Shown here: positions 7,988 to 28,774 of the stretch, one piece after another | Layout: each line of letters opens with the position of its first letter | Position numbering within the stretch: position 1 is the first letter of the stretch | Sequence record: OZ035727.1 | DNA length: 44,005 bases | Reading direction: 5' to 3' (one strand) | From: Vectrevirus T205P4 | Notes under the pieces: model-generated | What the model was told of the DNA's origin: nothing | Database searches by the model: none | What the model saw: only the letters and a program-made list of their open reading frames with translations | Made by a program: the position numbers and the translations under genes

Positions 7988-8340
7988 TCTCGCCCTCGCC
8001 CTCGCCGGATTTCCCCCATACGGGTCCGCGCTGCGGTTGGCTTGGGAATTGGGCTGGGCTGGTCCGTCTTCAACCTGCTGCCGCAGGAAGCTCGACGGGT
8101 GGGCGAGGGCTTGCCTTGTACTCGCTTAGTGGTACACAAGGAGAACGCCTAGGAAGCGCTAGGGCACGCCTTAGTATTGGACAAGGTGATTGCCTTAGTT
8201 CAACCGCTTAGGGCTTACACGGGCCGTTTTAGGGCCATTCCTGAGCGTTTGACAGGGTGTGAGGGCGTGGGCTATCTGTTCGTTTCGCTACGCTTCACTC
8301 ACTGCTCCTCACTTCGTTCGTCGCTGCGGTAGCCTGATGT
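7988..8340. other. GC-rich non-coding block, candidate genome terminus / direct terminal repeat
   Basis: Clearly more GC-rich than the rest of the window by eye; begins TCTCGCCCTCGCCCTCGCC and contains TTTCCCCCATACGGG, resembling the T7 left-end motif TTCCCCCATAGGGGG; no credible ORF. Confidence 0.45.
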
Positions 8341-8700
8341 GTACCTTAGGTTATTACTTGATGGATAGCTTAGGTTATAGCTTAGTGGCCTACCTTAGTT
8401 ATAACCTTAGTGCATAGCTTAGTATCAGCTTAGTAGTGTACCTTAGTAAGTCTTAGTGTCTTCTCTTAGTGATTGCACATGCAAGCATGTAAGATGCCAT
8501 TAGGTCGCGGTCGGTAGACCGCTAAAGAAGGAGAATAGTAATAAGATGCAGTAGGAGGAACACCAGAAACCTAGCCAACCTAGCCTATCCTAGCTCTGTA
8601 TCTATTGCTTTTCCTTAGTCTCACACGTTAGACAACCTAGGTTTGTCTTAGTAGTTGCGACATGTATCACATAAATAATCTATCTTAGTGCGATTTAGTG
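8340..8700. repeat. Array of short CTTAGT/CTTAGG motifs (more than 15 copies) in the terminal non-coding region
   Basis: Motif recurs at irregular 10-25 nt spacing (e.g. agcttaggttatagcttagtggcctaccttagttataaccttagtg...); analogous to the CCTAAAG repeats near the T7 left end. Confidence 0.6.
8618..8633. repeat. Degenerate copy of the 16-bp palindrome (GTCTCACACGTTAGAC, 1 mismatch)
   Basis: One substitution relative to the GTCTCACACGTGAGAC family. Confidence 0.4.
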
Positions 8701-8729
8701 TTGACATAGGCAGTTAACAGGTATACATT
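8701..8729 (+). promoter_or_regulatory. Host sigma70-type early promoter (TTGACA-N17-TACATT)
   Basis: Perfect -35 hexamer, 17-bp spacer, 4/6 -10; position equivalent to T7 A1-A3 early promoters. Confidence 0.6.
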
Positions 8730-8881
8730 AGCAATCAGTCGGGAGCGACATTAAATACTCAGGGTGAATGATAGAGAGCGTCCTTAACTATCCGGCCTAG
8801 CTACTGAAGCCGTTAAACAATGTTAGATAGTGGAAGATGGCGCAAGCATAACCTGCCACGATAAACCAAGGTTAGCGCAAT

Positions 8882-8894
8882 GCTCTTTAACAAT
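8882..8894 (+). promoter_or_regulatory. GCTCTTTAACAAT motif, copy 1 (putative RNase III processing site core)
   Basis: Same 13-mer as I recall at the T7 R0.3 RNase III site (ACGCTCTTTAACAATCTGG); lies just upstream of an early gene. Confidence 0.4.
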
Positions 8895-8952
8895 TTGCTT
8901 AGTGTAACCTATGTATGCCGTGGTTAATTACTTATTGAATGAGGAATTAGCT

Positions 8953-9132
8953 ATGACATTAAATAACCGTGAACTATCCGTTCTCTTCACTCTGTTGTGC
9001 TACATGATTCGTAACAACGAATTGCTTACAGATGACGAGTTGGCACTGTATCACCGCTTTCTTAACGAAGGTTGGACCGATACAGTTAATCAATACCGTA
9101 ACATGATAGATGAGTTGAGGGGGGGTAAATAA
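8953..9132 (+). CDS. Hypothetical early protein, about 59 aa
   Basis: GAGGA RBS before ATG at 8953; first gene after the host promoter. Confidence 0.5.
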   Translation: MTLNNRELSVLFTLLCYMIRNNELLTDDELALYHRFLNEGWTDTVNQYRNMIDELRGGK

Positions 9133-9356
9133 TGTATCAACATGAGGTATTCTTTGAATCAGCTAGCGAAGCTATTCGCTTCCGTGATGATATGATGCAA
9201 GCTGGTGTAGGCGTTGATGTGTATCACTATTTGATAGATTACGACACTGAATATCACCGAGTTACCTTAGTATCTGAGTATGACAACCAAGTCATTACTG
9301 AGTATCTAGGCAGTGAAGATTACGATTACGATGAAGTAATCACGACAAATCTCTAA
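9132..9356 (+). CDS. Hypothetical acidic early protein, 74 aa (D/E/Y-rich)
   Basis: GAGGGGGG RBS; stop/start coupled to the previous gene; strongly acidic composition. Confidence 0.55.
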   Translation: MYQHEVFFESASEAIRFRDDMMQAGVGVDVYHYLIDYDTEYHRVTLVSEYDNQVITEYLGSEDYDYDEVITTNL

Positions 9357-9364
9357 ATTAACTG

Positions 9365-9393
9365 TTGACAGCCACGGCATACAAGGTTACATT
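9365..9393 (+). promoter_or_regulatory. Second host sigma70-type early promoter (TTGACA-N17-TACATT)
   Basis: Identical architecture to the promoter at 8701. Confidence 0.6.
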
Positions 9394-9426
9394 AAGCATC
9401 AAGACGGCGACGTCTTTAAACATCCC

Positions 9427-9439
9427 GCTCTTTAACAAT
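9427..9439 (+). promoter_or_regulatory. GCTCTTTAACAAT motif, copy 2 (putative RNase III site), flanked by inverted repeats ATCAAGAC / GTCTTGAT
   Basis: 13-mer identical to copy 1; inverted repeat arms at about 9401-9408 and 9450-9457 could form the long stem. Confidence 0.45.
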
Positions 9440-9485
9440 ACGGTTTGTGTCTTGATAGGCTAACTAACTAACTAAGGTAATTATC

Positions 9486-9596
9486 ATGAAAGGGTTAATT
9501 TGTGTAGAACGTATGGTCAATGGTAAACTTGAAATATTACCACTGGAAAACCAATCTAGCTTCAAAGAGTGGTATGGCTGTTTCTCACTGATTTAA
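9486..9596 (+). CDS. Hypothetical small early protein, 36 aa
   Basis: TAAGGT RBS; small ORF between RNase III-like sites; below track cutoff. Confidence 0.3.
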   Translation: MKGLICVERMVNGKLEILPLENQSSFKEWYGCFSLI

Positions 9597-9638
9597 GGTA
9601 AAGGCTGGCACTAGTCAGCCTATCAAGGCGCAAACCAA

Positions 9639-9651
9639 GCTCTTTAACAAT
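9639..9651 (+). promoter_or_regulatory. GCTCTTTAACAAT motif, copy 3 (putative RNase III site) upstream of ocr
   Basis: Third identical 13-mer (AAGCTCTTTAACAATTTGG). Confidence 0.4.
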
Positions 9652-9745
9652 TTGGATGGTAGCTTCTTAGTCTGGATAGGTTAAACCTAGGGTATTCTTT
9701 TGAGTACCCTATAATGTAACCTAACTAACTAATGAGGATTAAATC

Positions 9746-10075
9746 ATGGAACGCAATGCTAACGCTTACTACAACCTTCTGGCTGCAACTGTTGAAGCAT
9801 TCAACGAGCGTATTCAGTTTGATGAGATTCGCGAAGGTGATGATTACTCTGATGCACTACATGAGGTTGTAGACAGCAATGTTCCAGTTTATTACAGCGA
9901 AATCTTTACAGTGATGGCTGCTGATGGTATTGATGTTGATTTTGAGGATGCTGGTTTGATTCCTGACACGAAGGATGTAACCAAGATTCTACAAGCTCGC
10001 ATCTATGAAGCTCTTTATAATGATGTACCAAATGACAGCGATGTAGTTTGGTGTGAAGGCGAAGAAGAGGAATAA
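9746..10075 (+). CDS. ocr: Ocr-like anti-restriction DNA-mimic protein (T7 gp0.3 homolog), 109 aa
   Basis: [45 protein letters not shown] aligns with T7 Ocr [45 protein letters not shown]; acidic C-terminus; TGAGGA RBS. Confidence 0.88.
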   Translation: [109 protein letters not shown]

Positions 10076-10182
10076 TAAGATGGAAAGGCAATATAACTTC
10101 ATATTTTCAGACGGTGTGACCTTAAAATGTTCCTTGCGATTTGCGCAGATTCGTGAGGAAGTACTAGGAACTACATACAAGC

Positions 10183-10208
10183 TATTTAGATGACACTATA
10201 AGAGAAGA
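10183..10208 (+). promoter_or_regulatory. Variant phage-promoter-like sequence (ATTTAGATGACACTATAAGAGAAG)
   Basis: Matches the consensus upstream half, but the initiating region is ATAAGAG instead of ATAGAAG; may be weak or non-functional. Confidence 0.35.
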
Positions 10209-10269
10209 CTTAACAAGGCGTTGCTACGGTAGCGCCTGATTAAACTTTCACTTACTAGGAGTTGAGATT

Positions 10270-10455
10270 ATGAAAACCTTGATTGGATGCTTCTTGTTGG
10301 CTTCTCTTGCTCTGGCATTTACCGCTAAAGCTGGTTATGACGCTTATAAAGTAGAACAAGCCCAGCAAGACTGGGCCAAAAAGTTCAACTTGTGCAGCAA
10401 GAGCAACACCTACGAGTACTGCAACAAAACACTAAGACACTTATGGAAAGAGTAA
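10270..10455 (+). CDS. Small secreted protein, 61 aa, with signal peptide (MKTLIGCFLLASLALAFTAKA) and Cys pair
   Basis: AGGAG RBS; canonical signal peptide with AxA-like site; mature part about 40 aa. Confidence 0.6.
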   Translation: MKTLIGCFLLASLALAFTAKAGYDAYKVEQAQQDWAKKFNLCSKSNTYEYCNKTLRHLWKE

Positions 10456-10462
10456 CTAGCCT

Positions 10463-10484
10463 ATAGCCCACCTGAGTGGGCTAT
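10463..10484 (+). terminator. Hairpin (ATAGCCCAC-CTGA-GTGGGCTAT) after the secreted-protein gene
   Basis: 9-bp stem with 4-nt loop, followed by GTGATATTTA; weak U-tract. Confidence 0.4.
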
Positions 10485-10519
10485 GTGATATTTACTTACC
10501 ACTATATAAGGTGATTACT

Positions 10520-11404
10520 ATGACTACTGAAAACACCCTCGTGTCTGTCCGTGAAGCTGCAACCGCTGAAATCAAGCAACATTTAGACAATATCGGCACT
10601 TCTTACATCAAAGTAGGGGCTTGTCTGAATGAGTTACGCGGAGACTTTGAAGGTCAAAAAGAGTTTTTAGCCTATGTTGAAGCAGAGTTTGCCATTAAGA
10701 AGGCACAATGTTACAAGCTGATGAGTGTAGCCCGTGTCTTTGAAGGCGATGATCGCTTTAAAGGCGTGGCGATGCGTGTAATGCTGGCGCTTGTTCCTTT
10801 CGCTGATGAAAATATCATCATGGAGAAAGCCGCAGAACTTGCCGCAGCGGGCAAGCTGGACACTAACGCCGTGAACGCCCTGATTGAGCCTAAGAAAGAG
10901 CCAAAGTCTGAGACGGTACAATCCAAGGCTGAGCCTGTAAAACCGCAGGAGAACGCGACTGCGGCCGCAGAATCCCAGGAAACGCAAGCGCCGCAGGAAG
11001 TGCCGCCAGCAAGTGAGTCGGATGACGACAAATCAGCACCGTGGGAAGAGGAAAGCAAGCCGGAAGCGCCAAAGGCCGCGCCACTGGACAACACGGCTAA
11101 CACTGAAAACGCCGCTATGACTGGCCTACTGGCACAAATTAAGGCACTGACTGAGCAATTACAGGCAGCTAACGACCGCATCGCCGCCCTAACCAGTGCA
11201 CGTGAAAGCAAGAAGGCAGCCGCGCCTATGCTTCCCCAATTCAAATCTAAATGTTTCTATGCTCGCTTGGGTTTAAGCGCTGAGGAGGCAACGAAGAAAA
11301 CAGCAGTTAACAAGGCACGCCGCGAACTGGTTAAGCTAGGCTATGGTGAAGGCCATGAAGCATGGGCCTCAATCTCTGAGGCAGTAGAAGAATTAACTAA
11401 GTAA
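10520..11404 (+). CDS. Hypothetical early protein, about 294 aa, with long acidic Pro/Glu/Ala-rich low-complexity linker
   Basis: AAGGTG RBS before ATG at 10520; sits where T7 has the gene 0.7 kinase, immediately upstream of the RNAP gene, but I see no kinase motifs. Confidence 0.7.
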   Translation: MTTENTLVSVREAATAEIKQHLDNIGTSYIKVGACLNELRGDFEGQKEFLAYVEAEFAIKKAQCYKLMSVARVFEGDDRFKGVAMRVMLALVPFADENIIMEKAAELAAAGKLDTNAVNALIEPKKEPKSETVQSKAEPVKPQENATAAAESQETQAPQEVPPASESDDDKSAPWEEESKPEAPKAAPLDNTANTENAAMTGLLAQIKALTEQLQAANDRIAALTSARESKKAAAPMLPQFKSKCFYARLGLSAEEATKKTAVNKARRELVKLGYGEGHEAWASISEAVEELTK

Positions 11405-11467
11405 CCTTATCGGTGGCATCTTCTTAGGTGTCACCTATTAAGGTTTCTTTCACTAGGAGTAAACAAG

Positions 11468-14095
11468 ATGCAAGACTTACACGCTATTCAACTTCAACTT
11501 GAAGAAGAAATGTTTAACGGCGGTATCCGTCGCTTTGAAGCGGACCAACAACGCCAGATTGCATCCGGTAATGAATCAGACACGGCATGGAATCGCCGCT
11601 TATTGTCTGAGTTAATCGCGCCAATGGCTGAAGGCATTCAGGCATACAAGGAAGAGTATGAAGGTAAAAGAGGCCGTGCACCGCGTGCATTGGCTTTCAT
11701 TAACTGCGTTGAAAACGAAGTGGCAGCATATATCACGATGAAAATCGTTATGGACATGCTGAATACAGACGTTACCTTACAAGCCATCGCTATGAATGTA
11801 GCAGACCGCATCGAGGACCAAGTACGTTTTAGCAAGCTGGAAGGTCACGCCGCCAAATACTTTGAGAAAGTTAAGAAGTCACTTAAGGCAAGTAAGACTA
11901 AATCATATCGCCATGCGCACAACGTAGCGGTCGTGGCTGAGAAGTCTGTATCTGACCGTGACGCGGACTTTTCCCGCTGGGAGGCATGGCCCAAAGATAC
12001 CTTGTTGCAAATAGGTATGACACTGCTAGAAATCTTGGAGAATAGCGTATTCTTTAACGGGCAACCTGTTTTCCTCCGCACCTTGCGCACTAATGGCGGC
12101 AAACACGGTGTTTACTACTTACAGACCAGCGAACACGTTGGCGAGTGGATAACTGCATTTAAGGAACATGTAGCGCAGCTTAGTCCTGCCTATGCGCCTT
12201 GCGTCATCCCTCCGCGTCCGTGGGTGTCGCCTTTTAATGGTGGATTCCACACTGAGAAGGTAGCAAGTCGTATCCGTCTTGTTAAAGGCAACCGCGAGCA
12301 CGTACGCAAGCTCACTAAGAAGCAAATGCCAGCCGTTTACAAGGCTGTTAATGCTTTGCAGGCAACTAAATGGCAGGTTAACAAGGAAGTATTGCAGGTT
12401 GTTGAAGATGTAATTCGTCTCGACCTTGGTTATGGTGTGCCTTCCTTTAAGCCGCTTATCGACCGCGAGAACAAGCCAGCTAATCCAGTGCCGTTAGAGT
12501 TCCAGCACCTGCGAGGCCGTGAACTTAAAGAGATGCTAACGCCGGAACAATGGCAAGCCTTCATCAACTGGAAAGGCGAATGTACCAAGCTGTATACCGC
12601 TGAAACTAAGCGCGGCAGCAAGTCGGCGGCAACCGTTCGCATGGTCGGGCAGGCCCGTAAATACAGCCAGTTTGACGCAATATACTTCGTGTATGCACTG
12701 GATAGCCGTTCGCGCGTTTATGCGCAATCTAGCACGCTCTCGCCGCAATCAAACGACCTAGGCAAGGCGTTACTGCGTTTCACCGAAGGGCAGCCTCTAA
12801 ATAGCTCTGAGGCGCTTAAGTGGTTTTTGGTGAACGGGGCGAATAACTGGGGTTGGGATAAGAAAACCTTTAACGTGCGCACCGCTAACGTGCTGGATGG
12901 TGAATTCCAAGACATGTGCCGCGACATTGCAGCCGACCCGCTGACCTTCACTCAATGGGTGAATGCAGATTCACCTTATGGCTTTCTTGCGTGGTGCTTT
13001 GAATACGCGCGTTATCTGGATGCACTGGATGAAGGAACACAAGATAAATTCATGACGCATTTACCAGTACATCAAGATGGTAGTTGTTCTGGTATCCAGC
13101 ACTATAGCGCGATGTTACGCGATGAAGTAGGTGCGAAAGCGGTAAACCTCAAGCCGTCAGACGAGCCGCAAGATATTTATGGGGCCGTTGCGCAAGTAGT
13201 TATCCAGAAAAACTATGCTTACATGAATGCAGATGATGCAGAAACTTTCACATCTGGAAGCGTAACACTTACAGGTGCAGAACTGCGTAGCATGGCTGGC
13301 GCGTGGGATATGATAGGTATCACTCGCGGCTTAACCAAAAAGCCGGTAATGACCTTGCCTTACGGCTCCACCCGCTTAACCTGCCGTGAGTCAGTGATTG
13401 ATTATATCGTTGATTTGGAAGAAAAAGAGGCACAACGAGCTATTGCAGAAGGGCGGACGGCGAATCCTGTTCACCCTTTTGATAATGACCGCAAAGATTA
13501 CCTGACACCGGGCGCAGCTTACAACTATATGACTGCTTTAATTTGGCCTTCTATCTCTGAGGTTGTTAAAGCTCCTATAGTGGCGATGAAAATGATTCGC
13601 CAGCTTGCACGATTCGCAGCTAAAAGAAACGAAGGGCTAGAGTACACCTTACCTACTGGTTTCATCTTGCAACAAAAGATAATGGCTACCGACATGCTAC
13701 GCGTATCCACTTGCTTGATGGGTGAAATCAAGATGAGTCTACAGATTGAGACTGATGTAGTGGATGAAACGGCAATGATGGGCGCTGCCGCTCCTAACTT
13801 TGTTCACGGGCATGATGCTAGTCATCTCATCCTGACTGTATGTGACCTCGTTGACAAGGGCATTACATCTATCGCAGTCATCCATGATTCCTTTGGTACT
13901 CATGCAGGCCGTACAGCAGACCTGCGGGATAGCTTAAGGGCAGAAATGGTGAAGATGTATCAAGGTCGTAATGCTCTGCAAAGCCTGTTAGATGAGCATG
14001 AGGAGCGCTGGTTAGTAGACACCGGAATCCAAGTGCCAGAGCAAGGGGAGTTTGACCTTAACGAGATATTAGTATCTGACTATTGCTTTGCATAA
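11468..14095 (+). CDS. Single-subunit DNA-dependent RNA polymerase, SP6-type, 875 aa
   Basis: N-terminus [32 protein letters not shown]... and C-terminus ...[10 protein letters not shown]...DYCFA match my recollection of SP6 RNAP; conserved catalytic region [18 protein letters not shown]. Confidence 0.97.
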
Positions 14096-14103
14096 TATTG
14101 ATA

Positions 14104-14133
14104 GGCCATTCCTTCGGGAGTGGCCTTTTCTTT
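14104..14133 (+). terminator. Terminator hairpin after the RNAP gene (GGCCATTCC-TTCG-GGAGTGGCC then TTTTCTTT)
   Basis: 9-bp stem with UUCG tetraloop and a U-tract. Confidence 0.7.
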
Positions 14134-28316: not shown

Positions 28317-28774
28317 TACGTCCAGCTTCCTTCCTAGATATTCCTGAGATTATAAACCTTGGGAATAAATATGTGGAAGAGGAAGTCAAGGTAGTGGCCC
28401 ATCACTCAGCCTCATGGAATGCAGAACAAAGTGCACATAACCTTTGTGCATCTCTTAGTAGAGAAGATTTATTCCTATGGGTGGCTGTAGATGAAGGGAA
28501 GATTGTAGGGTTCCTGTGGGCTGGCTATCACGAGTTAGCCCCTTGGACACCTGTAAGGGTTGCCTCTGACATTCTCTTTTACATTATACCAGAGAAGCGA
28601 GGGACACTACTAGGTATGCGTCTTATCAAGGCTCTTAAACAATGGGCTAATGAAAATGAATGCTCTGAGGTTCGCCTGTCTATCGCCTCTGGTATTAATG
28701 AAGAACGTGTCGGACGTATGTATAAGCGACTTGGCTTTGAACCGTTTGGCACTGTGTACAACCTGAAGTTCTAA
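28313..28774 (+). CDS. GNAT-family N-acetyltransferase, about 153 aa
   Basis: KIVGFLWAGYHE followed by IPEKRGTLLGMRLIKAL resembles the GNAT acetyl-CoA binding motif (Q/R-x-x-G-x-G/A). Confidence 0.65.
   Translation: MIRPASFLDIPEIINLGNKYVEEEVKVVAHHSASWNAEQSAHNLCASLSREDLFLWVAVDEGKIVGFLWAGYHELAPWTPVRVASDILFYIIPEKRGTLLGMRLIKALKQWANENECSEVRLSIASGINEERVGRMYKRLGFEPFGTVYNLKF

Follow-up and report, generated by a model that had tools for sequence, protein, structure and literature searches.

Three identical 13-mers lie between the small early genes of Vectrevirus T205P4 (OZ035727.1), and the question is what such a repeat is for. The window, i.e., the whole stretch of 44,005 nt analyzed here, is a K1-5/K1E-like Vectrevirus sequence of the SP6 group. 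An earlier note had read the repeat as the conserved core of the RNase III sites known from the early region of T7. We arrive at another assignment, in which the 13-mer is a copy of a host antitermination signal and the stems next to it are the candidate RNase III substrates.

The 13-mer and its setting in the early region

A search of the whole window for GCTCTTTAACAAT gave exactly three exact matches, all on the + strand, and the motif occurred in 0 of 100 dinucleotide-preserving shuffles of the window, which confirms the count and positions claimed earlier. The first copy (boxA1, 8882–8894) is located 5′ of gene 1, the second (boxA2, 9427–9439) between gene 2 and a 36-aa open reading frame (ORF), and the third (boxA3, 9639–9651) between this ORF and an ocr-like gene. 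All three are thus intergenic, and their placement between early ORFs was correctly described. The sole near match beyond these copies, GCTCTTAAACAAT at 28631, violates the boxA consensus.

[quoted passage not shown] Sequence comparison showed that the 13-mer is identical to boxA of the Escherichia coli K-12 rrnB leader, which is found ≈40 nt past rrnB P2. The identity extends over 16 nt for the first copy (8881–8896, TGCTCTTTAACAATTT) and over 15 nt for the third (9639–9653). All three copies fit the gamma-proteobacterial boxA consensus GYTCTTTAANA (PMC5725501), for which the rrn leader form is TGCTCTTTAACAA. The motif is therefore boxA and not an RNase III site, which corrects a plausible mis-annotation.

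Between one and four boxA copies per early region were identified in ≈35 related phages, on the transcribed strand in all of them. Variants with one mismatch differ only at consensus positions 2 or 10, which are both degenerate; in the SP6 variant GATCTTTAACAAT position 2 is an A and so falls outside Y. The sequences that flank the first copy on its 5′ side are unrelated from one phage to another. Many Enterobacterales Autographiviridae thus have this host rRNA antitermination signal conserved in their host-transcribed early region, often in more than one copy. An Rfam scan of positions 8100–11600 with a permissive E-value gave chance-level matches only, with no family reaching its gathering score, and no boxA or RNase III features were seen among the table entries listed for the K1-5, SP6, and T7 records (AY370674, NC_004831, AY288927, NC_001604, and V01146). 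A search of open-access papers found none tying boxA to SP6-like phages; the boxA copies themselves may already have been noted when the SP6 and K1-5 genomes were first described.

The copies are found in what looks like one long unit transcribed by the host polymerase. A sigma70-type promoter-like sequence, P1 (TTGACA-17-TACATT, 8701–8729, + strand), matches 10 of 12 consensus positions and is presumed to start the early transcript, and comparable TTGACA-N17-TACATT sequences are located upstream of the first boxA in relatives. A second, internal TTGACA-17-TACATT sequence, P2, is found at 9365–9393 (+ strand). With P1 and P2 taken as promoters, both being consensus matches only, all three boxA copies lie on the transcribed strand, 3′ of sigma70-like promoters and 5′ of the gene for the phage single-subunit RNA polymerase (11468–14095, + strand; PF00940 and PF14700), the essential product encoded distally on the transcript that the host polymerase makes early. 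No phage-polymerase promoter was found from the left end of the genome to position 10186. The early unit probably ends directly past the polymerase gene, at an intrinsic-terminator-like hairpin with a T run behind it (14103–14126, + strand, z −4.2).

The genes between the boxA copies are small. Gene 1 (8953–9132) and gene 2 (9132–9356) encode small proteins according to the K1-5 annotation and have no Pfam match, and the 36-aa ORF spans 9486–9596. The ocr-like anti-restriction gene (9746–10075; PF08684, E-value 9e-31, also annotated as such in relatives) is the first gene past the last boxA; all four are on the + strand.

The distances from boxA to these genes bear on a reading in which the copies mainly regulate translation or expression of the next gene in a Nus-dependent manner, with antitermination not as the main role. 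In E. coli, suhB has a boxA in its 5′ UTR that represses its translation, and putative boxAs ≤50 nt from start codons occur in many gamma-proteobacteria (PMC5725501). The 47 nt from the end of boxA2 to the 36-aa ORF and the 59 nt from the end of boxA1 to gene 1 would suit such a role. However, boxA3 is 95 nt away from ocr with a large hairpin intervening, and a regulator of this kind needs no rrn-like pairing of leader and trailer stems. T7 genetics also favor antitermination: PMC3709561, citing Savalia 2010, describes the T7 boxA, located 3′ of A1–A3, as an antitermination element whose mutation renders Gp2 dispensable. We consider regulation of the next gene unlikely to be the main role of the copies.

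Long-range stems between successive boxA copies

The inverted repeats said to flank the motif are present, but the strong complementarity does not span a motif; it joins the 3′ side of one copy to the 5′ side of the next. In stem 1, the 5′ arm R1 (8896–8925, + strand) begins 2 nt past boxA1 and is non-coding, because the annotated start of gene 1 is at 8953. It pairs with the 3′ arm L2 (9370–9398, + strand), just before boxA2, in a duplex of 29 bp (−48.1 kcal/mol) that encloses genes 1 and 2. In stem 2, R2 (9442–9461, + strand), beginning 3 nt past boxA2, pairs with L3 (9617–9636, + strand), ending 2 nt before boxA3, in a duplex of 20 bp (−40.7 kcal/mol) around the 36-aa ORF.

Both stems are conserved as pairings. 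For stem 2, 98.1% of the cells in the relatives are paired compared to 25–44% in slid registers, with compensatory changes at five pairs (17 cells), and the paired percentage, the number of compensatory cells, and the covariation score were each reached by 0 of 500 shuffles. Stem 1 is paired in 92.9% of cells, a percentage lowered by the MAFFT alignment of the type B arms, which sets phD2B, PM93, and K22PH one register off, and shows compensatory changes at 11 pairs. Alongside the arm alignment we ran an alignment-free comparison, in which cognate arms outpaired non-cognate arms (−46.4 vs. −28.6 kcal/mol) and the cognate arm was the best match in 6/6 cases; the test was weaker for the type A arms (4/7).

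The same arrangement was found by an unbiased duplex scan of the 42 nt past each non-terminal boxA at 16 loci, other loci being covered by a targeted scan. The best duplex partner was found just before the next boxA in 16/16 loci, with energies from −36 to −53 kcal/mol. Applied to rrnB as a positive control, the scan paired the 42 nt past the leader boxA with a segment just 3′ of 16S (−55.6 kcal/mol). The phage stems thus have the features of an rrn-like leader–trailer helix, with arms around a gene, a 5′ strand just past boxA, and compensatory change, the latter seen across ≈35 phages from several genera. The phage boxA always adjoins covarying stems. G-U pairs far exceed A-C pairs in the arms (24:3, 43:15, and 38:1), which points to + strand RNA and argues against inverted repeats acting as DNA. 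We also considered R1 as a minus-strand copy of the promoter and rejected this, as the −35 position matches at 1/6 by eye. The 3′ arm of stem 1 includes the spacer and −10 of P2, an overlap that is conserved in relatives, and part of the conservation of this arm could therefore stem from promoter function.

The boxA-stem frame houses at least six unrelated small ORFs among the phages, including those in the place of the stem 2 cargo, and the cargo of the T7-like phage K30 is 96% identical to that of K1E. The middle cassette is missing in four relatives (L008, L011, L020, and L022), and in three of these (L008, L020, and L022) the left flank of boxA2 is fused directly to the right flank of boxA3. 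These observations would fit repeats that are chiefly recombination joints, delimiting exchangeable cassettes and kept by the shuffling of early genes rather than by any function at the RNA level. Such joints do not account for a sequence that exactly equals boxA of the host rrn operons, for the invariance at consensus-critical positions across genera, for the strict strand bias, or for the compensatory changes and G-U excess in the arms. Cassette exchange is better viewed as a consequence of the repeats, and recombination as their chief purpose seems quite improbable to us.

Two small local hairpins on the + strand accompany the long-range stems. The first, AAGACG-GCGA-CGTCTT (9401–9416), lies 10 nt upstream of boxA2, in the position that boxB has in rrn leaders, and variants of it are present in relatives. 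The second (9602–9621) is located directly past the stop codon of the 36-aa ORF and shares bases with the beginning of the L3 arm. It competes with stem 2. In the relative L010 the two strands of this hairpin look swapped, as judged by eye.

Relation to the RNase III sites of T7

The T7 genome contains the exact 13-mer at 813–825, past the A3 start but short of the R0.3 hairpin. The T7 string ACGCTCTTTAACAATCTGG cited in the earlier note is real (T7 811–829), but it is found upstream of the R0.3 hairpin and not within it. This closeness, 20–30 nt, would favor the view that RNase III sites homologous to R0.3, R0.5, and R1.1 of T7 have the 13-mer itself as their conserved core, as would the stem next to every copy in the window and a faint likeness between CCTTTATGAT, conserved in T7 sites, and CTCTTTAACAAT. 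The direct comparison did not bear this out. The best matches to the 13-mer in the R0.3, R0.5, R1, R1.1, and R1.3 hairpins have 4–6 mismatches, inside the background distribution of random T7 windows, and the 13-mer is thus not related in sequence to these sites.

Folding gave the same answer. The copies in the window are unpaired in minimum-free-energy folds and neither form nor lie within a stem of ≈20 bp or longer. The only candidate hairpin around the first copy, 8855–8923 with boxA1 in the loop, was rejected, since shuffled sequences fold equally well (z −0.21) and the left arm is unconserved, with at least five unrelated sequences substituting for it in relatives. Conversely, a T7-type hairpin at 10192–10263 is found without any 13-mer. 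An RNase III core also leaves the exact match to the host rrn boxA unexplained, and we regard it as very improbable.

The stems expected of T7-type RNase III sites are instead formed by 8896–8925/9370–9398, by 9442–9461/9617–9636, and by a local hairpin at 9663–9737 (+ strand). The proposal of RNase III sites thus fails for the 13-mer itself and holds in that each copy directly adjoins a conserved covarying stem of the kind that RNase III cuts. Judged from the sequence, the polycistronic early transcript is therefore likely to be processed beside the motifs.

The hairpin at 9663–9737 lies past boxA3 and directly before the ocr ribosome-binding site. An internal loop separates its lower stem from an upper stem of 10 bp (9688–9697 with 9702–9711), and the hairpin folds with z-scores of −4.67 and −5.2. 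Based on a 12-sequence alignment and single-sequence folds, 98.6% of its cells are paired across relatives, with compensatory changes at two pairs (11 cells), and the same architecture was found in eight other phages and in T7. RNAalifold returned no pairs for 21 divergent post-boxA hairpins, which MAFFT had misaligned. The order of promoter(s), 13-mer, internal-loop hairpin with an upper stem of 9–10 bp, and ocr is shared between the window (9639–9745) and T7 (813–924). In position and architecture the hairpin corresponds to T7 R0.3, although the two sequences are unrelated. T7 differs in having one boxA and local hairpins only, compared to the three boxAs and two long-range, cassette-bracketing stems of the window.

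A possible working of the early operon

Taken together, we consider it probable that the 13-mers act as rrn-type boxA on the nascent early transcript of the host polymerase, beside conserved stems that serve as RNase III substrates. Loading of Nus factors at boxA and cutting by RNase III at the adjoining stems are both likely. BoxA would be read as RNA while the early transcript is being made, and would first bind the host NusB–NusE(S10) dimer. Together with NusA, NusG, and SuhB, this dimer would turn the polymerase into an rrn-like antitermination complex with ≈2× elongation speed, fewer pauses, and resistance to Rho, enabling it to reach the phage RNA polymerase gene 2–5 kb downstream. In T7-like phages rapid transcription would also speed the entry of the genome into the cell. 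However, early phage mRNAs undergo translation, so the need for protection against Rho is not obvious.

In a second step the adjoining stems, and not the 13-mer, would be the RNase III substrates. By remaining bound to the polymerase, boxA could retain the 5′ arm at the RNA exit until the 3′ arm emerges and the duplex closes, an idea modeled on a proposal for the 16S leader–trailer helix. Cutting by RNase III would then free the cassette mRNA with paired ends and, as a third step, the same cut would detach boxA from the transcript. Such removal would explain why a new boxA follows each 3′ arm. Three relatives (PhiM1, Entb_48, and K22PH164C1) have a type A stem without a boxA past its 3′ arm; together with the relatives that lack the middle cassette, they indicate that re-arming is not an obligatory step.

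The freed RNA could also serve another purpose: released boxA fragments might act as decoys that titrate NusB, NusE, and SuhB off the host rrn operons and so aid host shut-off. Several copies on abundant early transcripts would suit this, and RNase III cutting of the stems, if real, would free short boxA-bearing fragments, but a single copy is enough in T7 and decoys need no placement immediately 5′ of the stem arms, and we give this idea very little credence.

Since each copy adjoins a conserved stem bracketing early genes, the early operon resembles a miniature rRNA operon in its layout. A wider reading, possible but held only tentatively, is that the SP6/K1-5-like early operon, along with cassettes found also in some T7-like and KP34-like phages, is a deliberate rRNA-operon mimic built of tandem units of boxA and leader–trailer helix. 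Each unit would bracket an interchangeable small-gene cassette, and the polymerase-tethered boxA would drive co-transcriptional closing of every long-range stem. RNase III would excise the cassettes as end-paired mRNAs, and the next boxA would re-arm the polymerase. The conserved non-coding frame could in this way serve as a portable socket in which diverse host-takeover genes are expressed and processed.

If the stems are RNase III leader–trailer helices, these phages would copy the whole logic of the rRNA operon, a fast termination-proof polymerase with looped-out, end-paired processing, for small takeover genes and for access to the phage RNA polymerase gene. They would then be a compact natural mRNA system for testing the boxA-tether (RNA looping) model of how rRNA is processed, and this system should be genetically easier to handle than the rrn operons because the phage is freely mutable. 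The modular swapping of early gene cassettes would also be explained, and the engineering of phages, as well as of synthetic operons whose cistrons must be insulated and processed, would gain design rules.

Other systems use boxA in related ways. The boxA of lambda is a weaker variant (CGCTCTTA) that requires the phage N protein on the downstream boxB. At lambda nutL and nutR, boxA RNA likewise recruits NusB–NusE to the host polymerase on phage early transcripts (PMC10250234). The boxA of the window has the full rrn consensus, with no N-like protein or nut-type boxB identified, and should act with host factors alone. Consensus boxAs outside rrn operons also load Nus factors at suhB (PMC5725501) and upstream of CRISPR arrays in Enterobacteria (PMC7665894). 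Each of these elements occurs as one copy in the chromosome, where it either regulates a single gene or protects an untranslated array, and neither leader–trailer stems nor a tandem cassette layout are described for them.

The closest resemblance is to the E. coli rrn operons with their boxB-boxA-boxC leaders and RNase III leader–trailer helices. Besides the boxA identity over 13–16 nt, both systems have boxA shortly 3′ of a sigma70 promoter, a segment just 3′ of boxA that forms the 5′ strand of a helix with its 3′ strand past the enclosed gene, and another boxA after the helix. The phage system, known from sequence alone, differs in that its cargo is small translated protein genes (36–74 aa) instead of rRNA, that up to three or four units occur in tandem, and that one 3′ arm overlaps an internal promoter. 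The phage arms begin 2–3 nt past boxA, compared to a boxA-boxC gap of 18–19 nt in Enterobacteriaceae (PMC10250234). Small hairpins upstream of boxA2 and boxA3 are found at the rrn boxB position, and a TGTGT-like motif seen by eye in the phage 5′ arms resembles boxC.

Identity of the repeated 13-mer

The 13-mer GCTCTTTAACAAT occurs exactly at 8882-8894 (boxA1), 9427-9439 (boxA2) and 9639-9651 (boxA3), as the earlier note had reported, and all three are on the + strand of the whole window; no exact copy appeared in 100 dinucleotide-preserving shuffles. The sole near match, GCTCTTAAACAAT at 28631, breaks the boxA consensus. The placement between early ORFs could also be confirmed, as 3/3 copies are intergenic. 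BoxA1 lies upstream of gene 1 (8953-9132), boxA2 between gene 2 (9132-9356) and a 36-aa ORF (9486-9596), and boxA3 between this ORF and ocr (9746-10075; Pfam PF08684, E 9e-31). The circularly permuted genome belongs to Vectrevirus, in the SP6 group (Molineuxvirinae), with 92-98% identity to K1-5 and K1E, and position ~8173 corresponds to K1-5 coordinate 1.

The 13-mer is identical to the leader boxA of the Escherichia coli K-12 rrnB operon (517-529 of the sequence compared, ~40 nt past P2 of rrnB). Identity extends to 16 nt for boxA1 (TGCTCTTTAACAATTT) and 15 nt for boxA3, and the rrnB 16S-23S spacer has the variant GCTCTTTAAAAAT. All three copies fit GYTCTTTAANA, the gamma-proteobacterial boxA consensus (PMC5725501).

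The earlier note had read the 13-mer as the core of the T7 early RNase III sites and had placed ACGCTCTTTAACAATCTGG within R0.3. The string is real, but in T7 it is located at 811-829, downstream of the A3 start (750) and ahead of the R0.3 hairpin (fold ~844-912). Comparison of the 13-mer with the five early T7 RNase III hairpins gave 4-6 mismatches at best, no better than random T7 windows, and this part of the proposal was abandoned. For the T7 R-sites we assumed the positions of Dunn and Studier (1983), which agree with the common CTCAAGG...CCTTTATGAT hairpins observed in T7. PMC3709561, citing Savalia et al. (2010), describes the T7 copy as a boxA antitermination element located 3' of the early promoters; when it is mutated, Gp2 is no longer required. 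Judged by its sequence, the 13-mer is boxA, a known element recognised in T7 before.

We compared ~35 related early regions, including K1-5, K1E, SP6, UAB_Phi78, GRNsp03, T7-like K30, IMG/VR contigs and phages of Klebsiella, Raoultella, Lelliottia, Proteus, Enterobacter and Pectobacterium. They carry 1-3 copies each (≤1 mismatch to the 11-mer core), 100% on the transcribed strand. Where a copy deviates by one base, the change is always at position 2 or 10 of the consensus, both of them degenerate; one SP6 copy (GATCTTTAACAAT) has A at position 2, which Y does not allow. In K1E a fourth copy follows the second type A cassette (~2238), degenerate and with one inserted nucleotide (GCTCTTTTAACAAT). 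Upstream of the first copy, sequences from different phages are unrelated. BoxA followed by NTGG was found in at least 120 IMG/VR contigs, many of them T7-sized with the motif 0.7-0.85 kb from one end, and no 16S 5' end was found in the contig stretches examined.

Long-range stems between boxA copies

The strongest complementarity of the region joins the segment 3' of one boxA to the segment 5' of the next, rather than spanning a boxA. Inverted repeats at the motif, as previously noticed, are present, but they pair flanks of successive copies. Stem 1 (type B; 8896-8925 with 9370-9398, 29 bp, one bulge, -48 kcal/mol) encloses genes 1 and 2, and stem 2 (type A; 9442-9461 with 9617-9636, 20 bp, -41 kcal/mol) encloses the 36-aa ORF. 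An unbiased duplex scan of the 42 nt 3' of boxA against the downstream 2 kb was completed for 16 loci; the best partner of a non-terminal boxA lay directly 5' of the next boxA in 16/16 (-36 to -53 kcal/mol).

For the type A stem (13 sequences) 98.1% of the cells are paired, versus 25-44% in slid registers, with compensatory changes at 5 pairs (17 cells). The type B stem (26 sequences) has 92.9% paired, register errors included, and compensatory changes at 11 pairs (30 cells). For each stem, 0/500 shuffles matched the observed paired percentage, compensatory-cell count or covariation score. Cognate type B arms outperform any non-cognate combination in 6/6 phages (-46.4 vs -28.6 kcal/mol), and cognate type A arms are best in 4/7. 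The pairing of the stems is under selection. G-U pairs far exceed A-C pairs (24:3, 43:15 and 38:1), which points to pairing of the + strand RNA, rather than of DNA or the opposite strand.

The 3' arm of stem 1, which runs through 9398, has the internal promoter-like site P2 (9365-9393) built into it, and this overlap is kept in relatives. Transcripts initiated at P2 would thus lack the 3' arm, while read-through transcripts would contain it. Small hairpins (9401-9416 and 9602-9621) lie 10-18 nt 5' of boxA2 and boxA3, at the boxB position of rrn leaders. The second competes with stem 2, four bases being claimed by both. Comparable hairpins immediately precede the first boxA in SP6 and P433.1. 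After the last boxA a local hairpin (9663-9737, z ~ -5) takes the place of a long-range stem. Its lower stem is separated by an internal loop from an upper stem of 10 bp, and it lies directly 5' of the ocr ribosome-binding site. The architecture recurs in 8 other phages with different upper-stem sequences. The order boxA3, hairpin, ocr is that of boxA, R0.3 and gene 0.3 in T7.

In the same scan of rrnB, the 42 nt past the leader boxA pair with 2207-2248 (-55.6 kcal/mol), immediately 3' of the 16S end (2201); this duplex is the leader-trailer helix known to be an RNase III substrate. In the rrn complex, NusB-bound boxA holds the leader strand close to the RNA exit with 16S looped out, elongation speed is doubled, Rho is resisted, and the helix is cut by RNase III (PMC10250234). 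The phage units are laid out in the same way: a promoter is followed, in some cases after a small hairpin at the boxB position, by boxA, 5' arm, cargo, 3' arm and next boxA. A TGTGT-like motif inside the phage 5' arm is a further likeness to rrn.

Each copy thus has the rrn boxA sequence, strand and position, and is abutted by conserved, covarying + strand RNA stems. By analogy with rrn and T7, boxA would bind NusB-NusE, giving the host polymerase a modification like that of the rrn antitermination complex, and RNase III would cleave the stems; the RNase III reading may accordingly hold for the adjoining stems, though not for the 13-mer itself. More loosely, the boxA tether might assist closure of the long-range stems, and re-loading might follow at each subsequent boxA after cleavage. 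Three observations speak against a strict model: in some phages no boxA follows the type A stem, some lack the middle cassette and have its flanks joined at a single boxA, and P2 is overlapped by the 3' arm of stem 1. As far as the searchable literature goes (the 2004 SP6 and K1-5 genome papers fall outside it), tandem boxA with leader-trailer stems around protein-coding cassettes is undescribed.

Exchangeable cassettes

At least six unrelated small ORFs occupy the type A boxA-stem frame in different phages (window 9486-9596 and, in the comparison sequences, L004 711-884, L025 762-947, L026 724-888, L028 785-943 and L036 2544-2738). The K1E gp2.8 cargo is also found in K30, with 96% identity and in the same frame. 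As one frame surrounds unrelated ORFs, and K30 and K1E have a common cargo, the boxA copies and arms delimit exchangeable cassettes, and the non-coding frame acts like a socket in which early genes can be exchanged.

The middle cassette (window 9427-9651) is missing in L008 (2176), L020 (2415), L022 (1473) and L011 (2183). These relatives have a single boxA, flanked on the left as boxA2 is and on the right as boxA3 is, the arrangement that recombinational deletion between boxA copies would leave.

The unrelated 104-kb phage contig IMGVR_UViG_2974547928_000001 has boxA at 401, 576, 1278 and 1366 on its minus strand, ~20-25 nt after each of four strong promoter-like sites. Downstream of the second boxA, the arm forms 20 bp with the spacer and -10 region of the next promoter. 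These units are the same design in different sequence. Three boxA copies were also seen in a 99-kb contig (L051).

The early transcription unit

Two sigma70-like sites (TTGACA-17-TACATT) were identified by consensus match, at 8701-8729 and at P2. The phage RNA polymerase gene (11468-14095) is directly followed by a strong intrinsic-terminator-like hairpin (14103-14126), probably the early terminator. Phage-polymerase promoter-like sites TTACYGGACACTATAG were found on the + strand at 123, 2228, 3890, 14188, 14385, 16501, 17192, 21413, 22182, 23328, 26440 and 31473. The genome scan gave none between the left end (~8173) and 10186, which delimits a host-transcribed early segment. From these sites, the missing phage promoter and the polymerase gene and terminator located 3', it follows that the three boxAs head a ~5.4-kb unit. 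This unit is transcribable by host polymerase only, and must be read through for phage polymerase to be produced.

A weaker terminator-like hairpin with a poor T tract (10462-10485), which host polymerase would need to read through, lies between genes 5 and 6. Upstream of gene 5, a T7-type hairpin (10192-10263, z -3.8) with a GC-rich upper stem of 9 bp and two internal loops is a possible further RNase III site and explains a weak palindromic Rfam match. No boxA is present at this hairpin, a further case in which boxA and the T7-type hairpin are separate. The hairpin begins within a variant phage-polymerase promoter-like site, TTAGATGACACTATAA (10186-10201). Just inside the left end of the genome, tandem arrays of 12/24-nt units with CTTAGT (8339-8447) and ~2.8 copies of AACCTAGCCT (8568-8594) recall the short repeat arrays beside the terminal repeat of T7.
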